DNA of 64,000 nt from GCF_058153355.1 NZ_CM177019.1, one strand, 5' to 3'; positions 5,249-53,527 are shown, counted from the first letter of the stretch. Notes: generated by a model from the letters alone, not told the origin. Made by a program: numbers and translations.

Positions 5249-5357
5249 AGTCTGGCATTTGCGGCGATTCAGTTCTCATGTAAATGAGCGGAATAGTCTT
5301 TATAAAATCCGAAAAAAAATCCCGACACATGGCCGGGATATTGATGGTGAAAAAGAA

Positions 5358-7911: not shown

Positions 7912-8901
7912 TTAGCCGCCAATGTACGATAAGTTTTGCGTAATACCGGTGTTGTTTTGATGCAGGAAATGGGTCTGTTTCTTCTCCCGCAGCGCCGCTG
8001 AAATACGCGCTTCCAGCGCCTGTTGCTGGGTATCGTCTTCCAGCAGATCGCGCAGGTTAACGCCGCCTTCACCGAACAGGCAGAGATGGAGTTTACCAAT
8101 GGAGGAGACGCGCAGGCGGTTGCAAGTGGCGCAGAAGTCTTTTTCATACGGCATGATAAGGCCAATCTCTCCGGCGTAATCCGGATGACAAAAGACTTGC
8201 GCGGGACCGTCGCTGCGTTGACGTAATTGGTGGATCCAGCCGCGACGCAGTAACTCGTCACGCAGAACCTGACCAGAGATGTGATGCTTACGGAAGAGCT
8301 CGCTGCCCTCGCCCGTTTCCATCAGTTCGATGAAACGCAGCTGGATGGGGCGATGCTGGATCCAGTTCAGAAAGGTGTCGAGTTGGTGATGATTAACATC
8401 ACGCATCAGCACGGTATTGACTTTGACCTTCTCAAAACCGGCCTCAAATGCAGCATCGATCCCTGCCATGACCTGATTGAATTTATCCTGTCCGGTAATA
8501 GCATGAAACTGGCGAGCGTCGAGGCTATCGACACTCACGTTGATACCAGTAAGACCAGCATCACGCCAGTTCGCTACATCTCGTTCCAGACGGTAACCAT
8601 TGGTGGTGACCGCAATCTGGCGGATAGCGTCGTTTTCTCGCACAGCGGCGATGATATCGGTAAAGTCGCGACGCAAAGACGGCTCTCCGCCCGTCAGACG
8701 GACTTTTTCGGTGCCCAGACTGGCGAAGGCGCGCGTAACCCGGCGAATTTCATCGACGGTCAGAAAGCCTTTATTGGTGACGCCGCTCGGTTTGTAGCCA
8801 TCCGGCAGGCAGTAGGTGCAACGGAAGTTGCACACATCGGTAATCGACAGGCGCAAGTAGTAAAACTTACGCGCAAATGCATCAGTCAGTTGTGAAGCCA
8901 T
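7912..8901 (-). CDS. moaA: GTP 3',8-cyclase (radical SAM)
   Basis: 329 aa from MASQLTDAF...; CxxxCxxC radical-SAM motif (CNFRCTYC); ORF-track start at 8982 is an upstream extension. Confidence 0.9.
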
Positions 8902-9060
8902 GTACACCTTTCCAGATACGGGAGGCGAAATCATTTCTTCCTTCGCCCTGGTGGCAATCTTTGTAAGCATTGTCACGGCCAAAGCACCGTATCAGTTGAC
9001 CCAGGTGCAGAGGCTAGAGTGTTTAGTGGTTAAGCCGATACTAGCGTGTAAACAGGATTT
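8902..9060 (-). ncRNA. moaA leader, expected location of the molybdenum-cofactor (Moco) riboswitch
   Basis: Established knowledge that the E. coli moaA 5' UTR carries the Moco RNA motif; motif not verified base by base here. Confidence 0.45.
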
Positions 9061-24519: not shown

Positions 24520-24535
24520 AAGCGATTAACTTTTT

Positions 24536-24572
<37 letters not shown>

Positions 24573-24623
24573 TCGATGCGATGTCGGGTAGCAGCGATTC
24601 ATTACTGTCTCGCCGCCCCCTAA

Positions 24624-24657
24624 GAACGGTACGTGCGAGTTTCCCCGCATACCGCTC
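24624..24657 (-). ncRNA. Group II intron domain V
   Basis: Minus strand GAGCGGTATGCGGGGAAACTCGCACGTACCGTTC, 34-nt hairpin matching the domain V consensus with compensatory pairing. Confidence 0.75.
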
Positions 24658-24663
24658 AAGCCT

Positions 24664-26406
24664 TTATAAGCCTCCACCTTGTGGGAGACCAGCGTCATTA
24701 CTATGTAGTTGTCGATGGCAGTTGGGATGGAGTAGGACTAAATTGCTCACATCATCGCTACCGCCAAGAGATTTCTTGAGCAAATGATGAACATTCCATC
24801 CTGTATCGCGATTAATCGGTTGCTCACATAAAGGGCAGCGCGATCCTTGCCTTTTCCATATAGCGAGAATCCTTTTCTGCCCCTGTTGGGATTTCTTCCA
24901 TGAGTAGTCCAGCCTTCTTTCGAAGTATGTTTCCCACTCGGGATCATATGGATTTGCCGTTCCCTTTATTTTTATATAGCGATTAATATGGATGTCGCTG
25001 GCCCGGGACAGAACATATTTCCTACCCTCCGGATCGACTCCATAAAATCGACCATGACACATTTTTATTGTCGTGTGGTACTTTCGGAAGATCCATCTCC
25101 GGCCTTTGCCGGGATGTCTCCTTCTGCACCACTGCCAGATTTTGCGCCAGATTTGGTTGTCGACATAGTTAAATGTCTCTGCCGATGCTACATGTTGGTG
25201 ATAGTTTGCCCACCCGGTGATGATTGGATTAAGCAGATTTATTAGCACCCATGCAGGAACCGTTCGGTTACCTTCAATAGTCTCTCTGATCTTGCTAAGA
25301 AATTGTTTAACGTTTTTCTTGGCTGGTCTGATTATGAGTTTTCTACCGAAGCGTCGGACGTGCTGCCCAAGGAAATCAAATCCGTCAGTAATGTGAGTGA
25401 TGACCGTTTTCTCTTCGGATAACGTCAGCCCTCTTTCTGCAAGAAATGATTTCACCAACGGAAGAACATTCTCCTCCAGAAGTTCTTTCGACTTTCCGGA
25501 AATGATGAAATCATCAGCATACCGGACGAAGTGAACCTGATGTTTCCTGAATGTTTTTGAGCGTTTCGGACCAAAGCGATTTTGCAGCAGTCTTTCCAGT
25601 CCATCCAGGGCCATGTTTGCCAGAACTGGAGATATGATTCCTCCCTGGGGTGTACCCGAGAGAGTTTTGCTGAATATGCTTTTTTCGATGATCCCGGCTT
25701 TCAACCAATTACGGAGTATTTGCTTGTCCATAGGAATATTTTCAAGCAGCCACTCGTGGCTAATGTGTTCAAAGCATCCTTTAATATCGCCTTCCAGAAC
25801 CCATTTCGAGGCGTTCCGGGAACTATACATATTACATACCTGTTGAATGGCGTCAGCCGTACATCGCGCTGGTCTGAAACCATAACTGTTGTGATCTGCA
25901 TTAGTTTCCGATACAGGCTCCAATCCCAGCAGATGCAGGGCCTGCATTGCCCTGTCAAGCATGACGGGGATTCCTAATGGTCTTTTCTTGCCATTAGATT
26001 TGGGTATAAAAACTCTTTTTAGCGGTAGGGGCTTGTACCCTTTTCGCCTGAGTTTGAATATCGCTTCCCATTTTGATTCTGGAGTACTCCAGATTTGACC
26101 ATCAACTCCGGGGGTTTTACGCCCGCTATTTTCCGTAACTCGTTTCACCGCCAGTGCTCTGGCGCTGAATGAGCGAACCAGCAATCGTTGCAATCTACCG
26201 ACTGTACGCCATTGCTGGTTACATGCCGCCTTTGCGATTCTTGTCTGTATGGTTTTAACGTGTTGATGGCATTTCTTCCAGTTAATGGAATGCCAACCTT
26301 TTCCGTTGATGACCGCAGTTACATTGTTAGATGTAATTTTCATACATGTCATCCAAAGAAACCTTCGCAGATGTTTCGCAATTAAAGACCAGATGGAAGT
26401 CAGCAC
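24664..26406 (-). CDS. Group II intron-encoded protein: reverse transcriptase / maturase / HNH endonuclease
   Basis: 580 aa; RT motifs incl. YADD (FVRYADDFIISG); maturase X region; C-terminal HNH-like motif (HHLLKKSLGGSDDVSNLVLLHPNCHRQLH). Confidence 0.9.
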   Translation of the reverse strand: MLTSIWSLIAKHLRRFLWMTCMKITSNNVTAVINGKGWHSINWKKCHQHVKTIQTRIAKAACNQQWRTVGRLQRLLVRSFSARALAVKRVTENSGRKTPGVDGQIWSTPESKWEAIFKLRRKGYKPLPLKRVFIPKSNGKKRPLGIPVMLDRAMQALHLLGLEPVSETNADHNSYGFRPARCTADAIQQVCNMYSSRNASKWVLEGDIKGCFEHISHEWLLENIPMDKQILRNWLKAGIIEKSIFSKTLSGTPQGGIISPVLANMALDGLERLLQNRFGPKRSKTFRKHQVHFVRYADDFIISGKSKELLEENVLPLVKSFLAERGLTLSEEKTVITHITDGFDFLGQHVRRFGRKLIIRPAKKNVKQFLSKIRETIEGNRTVPAWVLINLLNPIITGWANYHQHVASAETFNYVDNQIWRKIWQWCRRRHPGKGRRWIFRKYHTTIKMCHGRFYGVDPEGRKYVLSRASDIHINRYIKIKGTANPYDPEWETYFERRLDYSWKKSQQGQKRILAIWKRQGSRCPLCEQPINRDTGWNVHHLLKKSLGGSDDVSNLVLLHPNCHRQLHSNDAGLPQGGGL

Positions 26407-26941
26407 GGTTTCCCGTTAAGGCAAATATTGAACCTCTATCCGCACGATTACAGTCCGGCTTTCGCTTTTTCCATCCTCCTTTACCCGCATTCTCATCAGT
26501 TTGCCTTACGGTGCCCCTGCCACTAGGGCGAGAATTCGGGCTTACCAAGTTCCGACCAACATACAAAGAACGGGTTAGGTTCTGTCTATCCGCCGGGGGA
26601 GTTATTGTCCATGTATTCCCACTACGAACAGGAATAGCCTTACCCCTTACCTTTTGGTGCAAGCCTATCAGCATCTTTGGCTCGTTCTCTGTTACGACGT
26701 TTAACGACAGTTCACTATGTTAACCATACCGCCCAGCCTAGCGCTCTCGCCGCATGATGCTTGTAGCGATCAGGTTTTCTCACGATTAACTGAAGCAATA
26801 TTTGCTAAGCTACATTGTCCCAAGGGCTTCAGACAGAGCCGTTACCAGCTTTGCCTGCCTCAGTAGGCTACAACTAATGGAATAGTTGGTTTTATATAAA
26901 TAATTTATCAAAACAATATGTTGGACGACTTCTTGTCGCAC

Positions 26942-27105
<164 letters not shown>

Positions 27106-27110
27106 GCTTT

Positions 27111-29372
27111 TTACATCTGACGGTTTTTATTGAAGTTAATCAAACTACCCGCCTTGATAATCTCGCGCTCTTCAGCAGTCAGACTTTCCATATAGAGCGT
27201 AATCTCTGTTACCGGCGCATCTTCATGGATCACATAACCTTTAAACGTCGTCCCCGGATTATCCAGCGCCGTTTTAATGCCAGGGATGTAAATGTAATCG
27301 CCCACTTCAAAGTTCGGTGCTTCCGCCATTTGCAGCGGTAACATCCCCCAGTTGATGACGTTAGAACGGTAGCGTTTAGTCGCGTATTCCTCGGCAATAT
27401 TCGCCAGACCGCCAATCACACGCTGGCAGCTCGCCGCCTGCTCACGCGCAGAACCATCGCCTGGTTTCACCGCATAGACCATGCTGCCAATTTCAGTTTG
27501 CAGCGGATCAATATGCTCCTGACCAGCAATCTGCTTAATGCGCGCAAACACCTCTGTCAGCTCGCTGACATTGCCCGCCAGACGCTGATTTTCCAGCTCA
27601 GCAGTCGCTTTACTTCTCCCAACATAACCTGGATCGCGGCGTGACAGGGTAAACTCCGCCAAACCAATCGGATTTGAACGATAAGAAGAGGTTTCACCGG
27701 AAGGAATCAGTTCGTCGGTGGTGGTGACTTCGTCGAGGATCTTCGAGCACACTTTGAGGACGATATTGTCAGTCAGCGCCCCCAATTCCGGCCAGTCTTT
27801 AATGTTCGGTCCGTAAATCAGCGGTTGCTGGGTCGCCCCTTTCACAAAGCCCTGATAAACACGGTTTTTATACGGCGTTACATCGAAGGCGTACTCCGGC
27901 ACGTTGTCCCAGCAATCCAGCTCGCTGGCAGAGGTTAAATAGCCACCGTTTGCCGCAGTCGCAGCGATAGAACGAGCGTCCATCAACGCCACCGCTGACA
28001 TCTGCCCATTGGCTGGCTTAGAGCCTTCGCGGTTCGGAAAGTTACGCGTGGTGTGGCGAATACTCAAACCGTTGTTGATTGGCGTATCGCCCGCGCCAAA
28101 GCATGGGCCGCAGAACGCGGTTCTGATGATTGCACCTGCGCCAATCAAATCTGCTACCACGCCTTTTTTGGCTAAATCCATAAACACCGGCTGTGATGAT
28201 GGATAAACCGCCAGCGAGAAGGTGTCATTGCCACAGGATTGACCGCGCAGCGCATTAGCTGCAGCGATAACGTTTTCATAGTTACCGCCAGAACAGCCCG
28301 CGATAATCCCCTGCTGCACTTTCAGGCGACCATTTTCCACTTTATCCAGCAATGAGAGTTTGGCTTTCCCGTGCGCCACGCGCTCGGACTCAATTTCAAT
28401 CTCACGCAGAATGTCAGTCAGGTTCTGGTTCAGCATGTCGATTTCATACACGTTGCTCGGGTGGAACGGCAGCGCAATCATTGGTTTGATGGCACTCAAA
28501 TCAACGCTGATGCAGCCATCGTAGTACGCCATCGGTTGAGGGTTAAGCTGACAATAATCCTGGCCGCGACCGTGCAGCGCCAGCCAGTTATGGACTTCTT
28601 CATCAGTTTGCCAGACAGAACTTAAACAGGTAGTTTCAGTGGTCATCACGTCAACGCTGTTACGGAAATCGGTAGAGAGCGCTGCAACACCGGGCCCCAC
28701 GAATTCCATCACTTTGTTTTTGACGTAGCCGTTTTTGAACACGGCACCAATGATAGCCAGCGCCACATCCTGCGGCCCCACATACGGCGCAGGTTTTCCG
28801 GTTAGATGCACCGCGACCACGCCCGGATAATCGATATCCCAGGTATCATTAAGCAGTTGTTTTACCAGCTCGCCGCCGCCCTCGCCGACAGCCATCGTAC
28901 CTAACGCACCGTAACGGGTGTGGCTGTCTGACCCGAGGATCATTTTGCCGCCGCCTGCCATCATCTCACGCATATATTGATGGATGACCGCAATATGCGG
29001 AGGCACAAAAATACCGCCATAACGCTGCGCTGCCGATAAACCAAAAACATGGTCATCACCGTTAATGGTGCCGCCGACGGCGCAGAGTGAGTTATGGCAG
29101 TTGGTCAGCACATACGGCAGCGGGAAACGTTCCATACCGGACGCTTTAGCGGTCTGTACAATACCAACAAAGGTAATATCGTGAGAGGCTAATGAATCAA
29201 ACTTAATTTTAAGTTTATCCATATTTCCGGACGTATTATGAGAAGAGAGAATAGACCAGGCAATAGTGCCTTTTTTTGCTTCTTCTTTTTTAATTTCGCC
29301 GGTGAAATGTTCTTCGGCAATTATTTCGTTATTACTGGCGAGAAACACGCCTTTTTCAGATAACTTGATCAT
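27111..29372 (-). CDS. ybhJ: Aconitase-family hydratase
   Basis: ~753 aa from MIKLSEKGV...; ORF-track 761 aa includes an upstream extension; synteny. Confidence 0.85.
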
Positions 29373-29439
29373 CAAATGCTCCAGATATCTGCGCACCGTT
29401 AAGTGCGCAGAAAGATAATAAATGGATATACTCTAAATA

Positions 29440-51061: not shown

Positions 51062-51195
51062 TTTACATTGGTGGGTCGTGCAGGATGACTCACTTCGCTC
51101 GCCCTTCGGGCCGTCGCCGCAAGCGGCTCCGTTGTTTCGCTGCGCTCTACTCGAACCTGCAGCAGGTTCGAATCTTTGAATATCGCAGATAGCAA

Positions 51196-51222
51196 AAAAG
51201 CGCCTTTAGGGCGCTTTTTTAC
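51196..51222. terminator. Bidirectional terminator-like hairpin (copy 2), directly 3' of the last tRNA-Lys
   Basis: Identical to the hairpin at 51035..51061. Confidence 0.6.
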
Positions 51223-51224
51223 AT

Positions 51225-51300
51225 TGGTGGGTCGTGCAGGATTCGAACCTGCGACCAATTGATTAAAAGTCAACTGCTCTACCAACTGAGCTAACGACCC
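51225..51300 (-). tRNA. tRNA-Lys (anticodon UUU)
   Basis: Minus strand GGGTCGTTAGCTCAGTTGGTAGAGCAGTTGACTTTTAATCAATTGGTCGCAGGTTCGAATCCTGCACGACCCACCA; corresponds to lysZ or lysQ. Confidence 0.9.
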
Positions 51301-51446
51301 ATACGGGTGTTACCTGAATGATTTCTACTCGGGACCAATCTTTAATATTGGTGGATCGTGCAGGATGACTCGCTTCGCTCGCCCTACGGGCCGTTGCTGG
51401 CGCAACGTTATCCTTCACGCTTAACATCTGAGTTTGATGTTAAAAC

Positions 51447-51522
51447 TGGTGGGTCGTGCAGGATTCGAACCTGCGACCAATTGATTAAAAGTCAACTGCT
51501 CTACCAACTGAGCTAACGACCC
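51447..51522 (-). tRNA. lysY: tRNA-Lys (anticodon UUU)
   Basis: Identical tRNA-Lys sequence; symbol by order in the operon. Confidence 0.85.
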
Positions 51523-51525
51523 GAG

Positions 51526-51601
51526 TGGTGGGTGATGACGGGATCGAACCGCCGACCCCCTCCTTGTAAGGGAGGTGCTCTCCCAGCTGAGCTAATCACC
51601 C
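51526..51601 (-). tRNA. valZ: tRNA-Val (anticodon UAC)
   Basis: Minus strand GGGTGATTAGCTCAGCTGGGAGAGCACCTCCCTTACAAGGAGGGGGTCGGCGGTTCGATCCCGTCATCACCCACCA. Confidence 0.85.
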
Positions 51602-51651
51602 GATACTGCGCTGGATACTACAAACTACTTCCACCGAACCCACCGCATTAG

Positions 51652-51727
51652 TGGTGGGTCGTGCAGGATTCGAACCTGCGACCAATTGATTAAAAGTCAA
51701 CTGCTCTACCAACTGAGCTAACGACCC
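51652..51727 (-). tRNA. lysW: tRNA-Lys (anticodon UUU)
   Basis: Identical tRNA-Lys sequence. Confidence 0.85.
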
Positions 51728-51729
51728 GG

Positions 51730-51805
51730 TGGTGGGTGATGACGGGATCGAACCGCCGACCCCCTCCTTGTAAGGGAGGTGCTCTCCCAGCTGAGCTAAT
51801 CACCC
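51730..51805 (-). tRNA. valT: tRNA-Val (anticodon UAC)
   Basis: Identical tRNA-Val sequence. Confidence 0.85.
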
Positions 51806-51940
51806 GATACTACGCTGGATACTACAACTAACTAGGTTAGTGGTGGGTCGTGCAGGATGACTCGACTTCGTCTCGCCCTTCGGGCCGTTGCTGACGCAAC
51901 GTTATCCTTCACGTTTTACTACCGCTTCCACCTTAGCGAT

Positions 51941-52016
51941 TGGTGGGTCGTGCAGGATTCGAACCTGCGACCAATTGATTAAAAGTCAACTGCTCTACCA
52001 ACTGAGCTAACGACCC
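51941..52016 (-). tRNA. lysT: tRNA-Lys (anticodon UUU)
   Basis: Identical tRNA-Lys sequence; first gene of the operon. Confidence 0.85.
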
Positions 52017-52180: not shown

Positions 52181-52972
52181 TTACATCGCGTTCAGACGTT
52201 TTTGCGCCTGTTTTGCGCCATCAGTCCCAGGGTATTTACTGATAACCTGCTGATATACAGCTTTCGCTTTTGCGGTGTCACCTTTGTCCTGCATGATGAC
52301 GCCGACTTTAAACATCGCATCTGCAGCCTTCGGTGACTTCGGATAGTTTTTCACTACCGAAGCAAAATAGTACGCCGCATCATCTTTTTTACCCTTGTTG
52401 TAGTTTAACTGACCCAGCCAATAATTGGCGTTTGGCAGATAAGTTGAATCAGGGTAATTTTTGATGAAATTCTGAAATGCCACCATTGCGTCATCCTGGC
52501 GGGATTTATCCTGCACCAGCGCAATAGCTGCATTGTAATCCGTGTTTGCATCACCGCTTTTCACCGGCGCGCCAGCATTCGCAGTACCAGCATCAGCTGT
52601 CGGCGTCGTTGATGCCGCCGCACCGCTTTGATCGCCGCTGGTTGATTGCGCCGCTGCACCACCGCTGCTGAGGCTATCGATCTGCAACAGGATCTGCTTT
52701 TGCCGCTCCACGACCTGATTCAGTTGATACTGATTTTCCTGAATCTGACCACGCAGGGAATCAATATCGGATTGATTATCAGAGAGTTGTTGCTGGAGTT
52801 GGGTTAAAAGCTGGCTGTGAGCATTAGAAATACGCTCAAGTTGAGTGACGCGGTCTTCGACCGAGCCTGAGCCGACACTACTGATTGGTGCCTGAGCAAA
52901 AGCGGCCCAGGGGGCCGCTATACCAACCAGTAACGACAGACTCAATAGTTGATGTCTGAAGTTACTGCTCAT
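52181..52972 (-). CDS. cpoB: Cell division coordinator CpoB (YbgF), TPR protein
   Basis: 263 aa with signal peptide; last gene of the tol-pal cluster. Confidence 0.9.
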   Translation of the reverse strand: MSSNFRHQLLSLSLLVGIAAPWAAFAQAPISSVGSGSVEDRVTQLERISNAHSQLLTQLQQQLSDNQSDIDSLRGQIQENQYQLNQVVERQKQILLQIDSLSSGGAAAQSTSGDQSGAAASTTPTADAGTANAGAPVKSGDANTDYNAAIALVQDKSRQDDAMVAFQNFIKNYPDSTYLPNANYWLGQLNYNKGKKDDAAYYFASVVKNYPKSPKAADAMFKVGVIMQDKGDTAKAKAVYQQVISKYPGTDGAKQAQKRLNAM

Positions 52973-52981
52973 GCAATTCTC

Positions 52982-53527
<546 letters not shown>

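Follow-up and report, generated by a model that had tools for sequence, protein, structure and literature searches.

We report that a 64,000-nt stretch of NZ_CM177019.1 (GCF_058153355.1), referred to here in its entirety as the window, carries a group II intron that is complete in its RNA domains (I-VI) and encodes an intact reverse transcriptase (RT)/maturase/HNH protein. The intron is of the mobile bacterial IIB type, and its protein belongs to the chloroplast-like RT lineage, with RT, maturase/X, DNA-binding, and HNH regions. It sits in repetitive extragenic palindromic (REP) DNA between ybhC and ybhJ, although its lineage naturally homes to the final codons of hok-family type I toxin genes, on IncF plasmids that are carried by several enterobacterial genera. 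Very probably, the copy in the window reflects a recent plasmid-to-chromosome event, in which a hok-homing intron entered a look-alike REP by ectopic retrohoming.

Boundaries of the intron and its empty site

Read on the minus strand, the intron runs from GTGCGACAAG at 26941 through to ...GCTGCTACCCGAC at 24583. The original prediction, made from the sequence alone, had recognized a GTGCGAC 5' end, which we found on the minus strand starting at 26941. It had placed the 3' boundary at 24573, a position that falls 10 nt inside the 3' exon; the actual end is 24583. Both the end of the Rfam model and the comparison with an empty site agreed on C24583 as the last intron base. The termini are conserved (GUGCG at 26937..26941, GAC ending at 24583) and follow the GUGYG/AY rule.

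The empty site was provided by E. coli EC42405. When position 24582 is joined to 26942, the product is a 232-nt ybhJ-ybhC spacer that is identical to that of EC42405 at 232/232 positions. This comparison revealed neither a target-site duplication nor a deletion at the insertion, which fits the expectation for reverse splicing. A 1,200-nt query made of the joined exons matched more than 5,300 complete genomes with an uninterrupted ybhC-ybhJ interval, and K-12 carries the same REP array without the intron. Thus, both the placement in intergenic REP DNA and the absence from the K-12 interval, as originally proposed, are borne out.

A plasmid lineage that homes to hok

A megablast-level search found the intron in 0/5,426 complete E. 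coli chromosomes, and its first 36 nt had no exact match in a scan of one genome per species. Full-length copies were present on two E. coli plasmids in the 5,426-genome search, while a third plasmid shares only 38 nt. Within a plasmid collection, 43 records matched, with hosts that are mostly Escherichia, E. albertii, Salmonella, Citrobacter, Enterobacter, and Klebsiella.

Relatives that are 76-100% identical lie almost always in the final codons of IncF-plasmid hok-family toxin genes. Eight of the nine plasmid copies that we fetched interrupt the final hok codons (...M/L-A-Y-E^, where the caret marks the insertion point here and below), with a 5' exon of ...GGC(T/C)TACGA and a 3' exon that begins with A; the ninth (L009) is ectopic. 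Metagenome contigs containing the intron 5' end had a hok-type exon in 4/5 cases, and the fifth (L018) had a similar string outside hok. The NCBI plasmid contig GCA_043012465.1, on which the intron sits in hok beside finO, nuc, and hha, encodes the exact 562-aa protein and shows 0 mismatches to the window copy over the available 2,333 nt. The pRHB33-C08_2 copy has 10 differences and is 99.6% identical. Among the proteins of other introns common on enterobacterial plasmids, identity does not exceed 60%.

Several further observations concern these plasmids. RefSeq Hok open reading frames (ORFs) at the plasmid loci (L001-L008, L020) extend ~34 nt into the intron. In the pRHB33-C08_2 copy (L003 ~5261-5263), C2261T creates a stop five codons before the normal protein end. 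On plasmid pCRST030_1 (L001 1-1197), the leading region also has, upstream of ssb, the RT gene (WP_058914895.1) of a second group II intron that is distinct from this one. We also considered whether the intron in the F33 plasmid paper is the same element and rejected this; the one reported there, downstream of ycjA, is not the intron described here.

Base pairing with the hok and REP targets

Group IIB1 introns recognize their targets through exon-binding sites (EBS) that pair with intron-binding sites (IBS) in the exons, with IBS1 at -6..-1, IBS2 at -13..-9, and two spacer bases (PMC8643678); the register of the intron here agrees. The elements of recognition and the REP DNA on either side are as follows.

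26622..26627, minus strand: EBS1, 5'-UCGUAG-3', intron 315-320, in the loop of an AUUCC...GGAAU hairpin; pairs 6/6 with IBS1 CUACGA
26687..26691, minus strand: EBS2, 5'-CAGAG-3', intron 251-255; pairs 4/5 with IBS2 AUCUG here and 5/5 with CUCUG in hok
26942..26954, minus strand: 5' exon target in the REP tail, from sequence and pairing; IBS1 CUACGA at 26947..26942, IBS2 AUCUG at 26954..26950
24582, minus strand: IBS3, the first 3' exon base, A; A is at +1 in 10/10 sites with a readable 3' exon
26942..27110, minus strand: REP/bacterial interspersed mosaic element (BIME) array upstream of the intron, in the ybhJ 3' untranslated region (UTR), with an unoccupied paralogous site, from the spacer comparison
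24520..24582, minus strand: REP downstream of the intron, reaching the ybhC stop codon, from the spacer comparison

The natural hok site of this sub-lineage reads CUCUG-GC-CUACGA^A (EBS1 6/6, EBS2 5/5) and the REP site here reads AUCUG-AC-CUACGA^A (EBS1 6/6, EBS2 4/5). Covariation across copies argues that these pairings are real: EBS1 UCGUAA and EBS2 CAUGA accompany IBS1 UUACGA and IBS2 UCAUG in L001, while EBS1 UCGUAG and EBS2 CAUAA accompany IBS1 UUACGA (with G·U at -6) and IBS2 UUAUG in L007. L006 has EBS1 UCGUAA with the exon UUACGA, and in L008 the stem of the EBS1 hairpin carries a compensatory change from A-U to G-C. The original prediction implied exon-binding pairings at the boundaries, and both EBS1/IBS1 and EBS2/IBS2 exist there and covary among copies. 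U residues in the internal loop 5' of EBS2 are candidate partners for the +1 A.

Scanning both strands of the 61.6-kb pre-insertion window returned the occupied site as the single best-scoring site. Only this site and a paralogue combined a fully Watson-Crick IBS1 with a +1 A. The paralogue, ...AUCCGACCUACGA^A with its junction at 27034/27033, is unoccupied and matches IBS1 at 6/6 but IBS2 at only 3/5 positions. Written with more of its 3' side, this empty target is TCTTATCCGACCTACGA^ATCGC; within the same REP array it is 92 bp further upstream, and it has C, not T, at -10. The orthologous K-12 site, with C at -10 and A at -2, is a poorer match and is empty.

We found a second REP insertion by the same lineage in the Logan assembly SRR31800506 (L012 1-3033). 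This intron, which has 1 mismatch, occupies a REP tail downstream of rsmC and is flanked by ...TCTGGCCTACGA^ and ^AGGGCTAACG.... Its target, ...AUCUGGCCUACGA^A, is at the same position of the REP tail as the ybhJ site. The empty rsmC site in strain KE55 is GCCAGATGCGACGCGGGCGCGTCTTATCTGGCCTACGA^AGGGC (L019 about 395-405), and the REP junction of L012 is ...TCTTATCTGGCCTACGA^AGGGC.

The two copies outside both hok and REPs were seen at GGCTTTCGA^ACAATG, with one IBS1 mismatch, in L009 (pRHB40-C01_2) and at ...TTGATGGCTTACGA^, in non-coding DNA, in the metagenome contig L018. Taken together with the REP sites, these sporadic sites suggest that the family retrotransposes occasionally to look-alikes, REP tails included.

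RNA domains and the intron-encoded protein

A scan with Rfam at gathering thresholds gave two matches within the intron. The group-II-D1D4-7 model (RF02012) matched 26889..26742 with 112.5 bits (E 9e-24; gathering score 34), and the model of domains V-VI (RF00029) matched 24659..24583 with 65.5 bits (E 1.5e-11; gathering score 40). The anatomy of the element is listed below.

24583..26941, minus strand: complete group II intron, 2,359 nt, 5' GUGCGAC ... CCCGAC 3'; from Rfam, empty-site excision, and 97-100% identical plasmid copies annotated as group II introns
26546..26935, minus strand: domain I, approximate limits, closing helix CAAG/CUUG; from RNAalifold and pair counts in 8 relatives, and RF02012 over 26742-26889
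26483..26541, minus strand: domain II, approximate; helices 20-22, 5 pairs with compensatory changes
26384..26481, minus strand: domain III, approximate; helices 23-28, 2 pairs with compensatory changes
24664..26343, minus strand: intron-encoded protein ORF in domain IV, 559 aa plus stop; from Pfam, NCBIfam TIGR04416, and the T.el4h RT alignment
24624..24657, minus strand: domain V, 34 nt, with AGC triad, GAAA loop, and 2-nt bulge; from the RF00029 alignment and fold
24586..24620, minus strand: domain VI; the branch-point A, 24589, is its only bulged A and is 7 nt from the 3' end; from the RF00029 alignment and fold

The predicted domain V sequence, GAGCGGTATGCGGGGAAACTCGCACGTACCGTTC, is exactly at 24657..24624, and A24589, ahead of the terminal ...CCCGAC, is the bulged A that had been proposed for domain VI. 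Domains V and VI together fold with -40.2 kcal/mol (z = -5.55 vs shuffles).

For the 5' part, the first ~610 nt of the intron were aligned with seven relatives (76-99.6% identity), from which RNAalifold recovered the layout of domain I, II, III, and the beginning of IV. The resulting structure of domains I-III has 162 pairs that are 98.8% paired, and 12 pairs show compensatory changes versus 0-3 in controls whose partners were slid by 1-3 columns; this structure was derived from the same 8 sequences that were used to score covariation. Two features of the RNAalifold output were not kept. One joined the 5' GUGCG to sequence further downstream, an implausible pairing that was removed; the other, a misfolded EBS1 region, was replaced by the AUUCC/GGAAU hairpin, backed by the compensatory change. 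A 115-aa ORF at 26327-26674 (minus strand) appears among the gene calls of a Logan assembly (L013 268-615) and overlaps domains I-IV; because it lies inside structured ribozyme RNA, it is almost certainly spurious.

The protein was described in the original prediction as a 580-aa product with a YADD RT motif and a C-terminal HNH-like motif. Both motifs are present, as judged by Pfam, which identified RVT_N, RVT_1 (containing YADD), GIIM, and HNH domains, but the length does not stand. Reading the ORF mechanically from a GTG gives 580 aa, whereas the ATG at 26343 gives 559 aa and is the start that RefSeq annotates in 97%-identical copies; an in-frame alternative, the ATG at 26352, yields the 562-aa product predicted in an NCBI assembly. 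A look-up returned no record for the 580-aa GTG-start product and found both the 559-aa and 562-aa versions. The start codon is likely to be one of these two ATGs. The protein scored 369.5 bits against NCBIfam TIGR04416 (group II RT/maturase; curated cut-off 300) and aligned over residues 15-551 with the T.el4h RT (6me0_C; E 2.4e-187), including the YADD and HNH Cys/His motifs. With Rfam, Pfam, and the empty site in agreement, the description of the element as a complete group II intron with an RT/maturase/HNH protein is supported, including its match to group II covariance models.

Genomic context

The intron shares its strand with ybhJ (27111..29396, minus), begins 169 nt past the ybhJ stop, and converges on ybhC. 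A promoter scan of the region yielded one weak promoter-like match only, fewer than in shuffles, and for this reason we think that the intron is likely to be transcribed by read-through from ybhJ. The plus strand of the window has a uniformly negative GC skew (-0.04), which makes the intron sense strand leading-strand sequence and its DNA target the lagging-strand template. This orientation is compatible with endonuclease-dependent priming and also with priming by the nascent lagging strand, a mechanism described in literature cited in PMC3522654.

An Rfam match to naRNA4 (RF02564, 71.9 bits) at 26947-27017 (minus strand) covers a REP pair abutting the 5' splice site. Rather than marking a separate gene, the model, which derives from REP325, has probably cross-matched ordinary REP DNA. 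Elsewhere, the window has features of K-12 type: a Moco riboswitch at 8889-9033, seven tRNA genes and RtT repeats at 51069-52016, and the cpoB/ybgF thermometer at 52943-53081, all on the minus strand.

Discussion

How might a plasmid intron have come to lie between ybhJ and ybhC? We propose that an intron ribonucleoprotein, most likely from a plasmid hok copy, would have recognized the REP tail downstream of ybhJ through EBS1-IBS1 (6/6), EBS2-IBS2 (4/5), and the +1 A. The intron RNA would then have reverse-spliced into the ybhJ-sense strand and been copied into DNA by target-primed reverse transcription, with either the HNH-cleaved opposite strand or the nascent lagging strand as primer. Once in place, the copy may be transcribed via read-through and spliced from the REP-containing 3' UTR at small cost to the host. 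Present splicing and mobility are suggested indirectly by the 0-1 mismatches to other copies, the clean empty site, and the several insertion sites.

Some points weigh against this account. The IBS2 pairing has a mismatch at -13. IIB1 introns need an EBS2a-IBS2a pair for DNA integration (PMC8643678), and here EBS2a-IBS2a could not be assigned unambiguously from the alignment, nor was EBS3 located. The exact 44-nt target allele is scarce, present in 15/5,426 complete E. coli genomes, making the event rare. Moreover, the donor plasmid would lie outside the 64-kb window, so we infer the direction of transfer, and the support for splicing and mobility is indirect.

It is conceivable that REPs are an emerging second homing site; some REP alleles have tails that repeat the IBS2-IBS1-IBS3 string found in hok. 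Introns of the sub-lineage carrying EBS2 CAGAG and EBS1 UCGUAG would then systematically enter those REPs that end in ...AUCUG(G/A)CCUACGA^A and persist safely at scattered places in the chromosome, in the way that repeated stem-loops are exploited by IS1397-type insertion sequences or class C introns. Two independent, near-identical insertions at the same REP-tail position in two loci agree with this idea, as do REP sites that pair about equally well as the hok site and one further sample in which the intron contig ends exactly at the intron borders, as for a multi-copy element. However, none of the 5,426 complete chromosomes carries the intron, the adjacent REP with a perfect IBS1 is unoccupied, and the sporadic sites of other sub-lineages (L009, L018), neither hok nor REP, fit ordinary ectopic retrotransposition. 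An element specialized for REPs would have most of its copies there and many per genome, whereas most copies are in hok. We therefore regard a shift to REPs as unlikely. Were it true, the element would be an E. coli group II intron that targets REPs, and would illustrate in nature how a retroelement moves from one plasmid gene to a repeat family spread across the genome.

A different route to the same locus would be homologous recombination between REPs, copying an intron-bearing REP from elsewhere in the genome. REP DNA is repeated and a known recombination substrate, and a second REP-borne copy does exist in another sample. Nevertheless, the flanks keep the locus-specific variants of EC42405 over all 232 positions, among them the T at -10 and, in the 3' exon, ACTG, and differ from the rsmC REP flanks; no foreign REP conversion tract was seen beside the intron, and the junction is exactly where the EBS/IBS pairing predicts. 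This route is extremely improbable. Finally, the copy might be an immobile relic, no longer able to splice or move. It has no good promoter of its own, and many enterobacterial group II intron copies are inactivated (Leclercq and Cordaux, PMC3522654). Against this, the ORF is intact with all catalytic motifs, the helices are 98.8% paired with canonical domain V, domain VI, and branch A, and there are 0-1 mismatches to copies elsewhere, so that we consider an inert copy quite unlikely. Ectopic retrohoming of a hok-homing plasmid intron remains our preferred explanation.

The element resembles several known systems without being one of them. It shares the RT/maturase/HNH layout of T.el4h, the Thermosynechococcus IIB intron (6ME0/6MEC), and itself has the IIB hallmarks of a 34-nt domain V with EBS1 and EBS2, but T.el4h has a cyanobacterial host and other target sites, and the comparison was made at the level of the protein. 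EcI5 (E.c.I5, IIB1/CL1, from E. coli pO157) is likewise a plasmid-borne IIB intron with an RT-maturase-endonuclease protein, whose DNA target is read by EBS1, EBS2 (5 bp, -13..-9), EBS2a, and EBS3 (PMC8643678), but its natural target is different. We rejected identity with EcI5, since apart from the three plasmids noted above no intron in the 5,426 E. coli genomes, with their many plasmids, is similar at megablast level. The EcKTE56.groEL intron is also chromosomal and at a gene end. This specialized IIB1 intron of E. coli occupies the groEL stop codon, is expressed from the host locus, and is mobile (PMC12584367); its target and lineage differ from those here, and its activity has been proven experimentally.

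Ectopic insertion has precedents as well. According to work cited in PMC3522654 (Cousineau 2000, Martinez-Abarca and Toro 2000, Ichiyanagi 2002), Ll.LtrB and RmInt1 insert ectopically at sites with imperfect IBS motifs. The leading-strand position of the intron sense strand here would also fit lagging-strand priming. Unlike theirs, however, the ectopic site here keeps 10/11 bp plus the +1 A and the endonuclease is intact; with near-full pairings and an intact endonuclease, the ordinary endonuclease-dependent route is equally possible.

Repeated palindromes and stem-loops serve other elements as harmless landing sites. IS1397 and ISKpn1 are insertion sequences that target REPs. A connection of ISPa11 with REP is mentioned in bioRxiv 10.1101/527788, and class C introns target terminator stem-loops (PMC3522654). 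These elements are specialized, whereas the intron here mainly targets the hok coding sequence and its use of REPs looks incidental.

A literature search on group II introns with hok, REP, BIME, or ltrA did not find this lineage described, nor any account of an E. coli group II intron inserted in a REP; the enterobacterial intron survey (PMC3522654) mentions neither a hok-homing intron nor a REP insertion. New here are the attribution to a plasmid hok-homing origin, the base-pairing account of the landing in a REP, and the second REP insertion.

E. coli is already well known to harbor group II introns, so that by itself the element changes nothing, and its mechanism holds no surprise. The case is unusually clean, though, in that it combines an occupied site, an identical empty site, an identical donor-type copy on a plasmid, an empty and poorer paralogue 92 bp away, and covarying pairs. 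With the lineage at home in the end of hok, one may ask whether making the toxin requires splicing. Two independent insertions into REPs hint that REP variants can act as chromosomal landing pads, and the case as a whole documents the base-pairing rules that let a plasmid intron colonize the chromosome.

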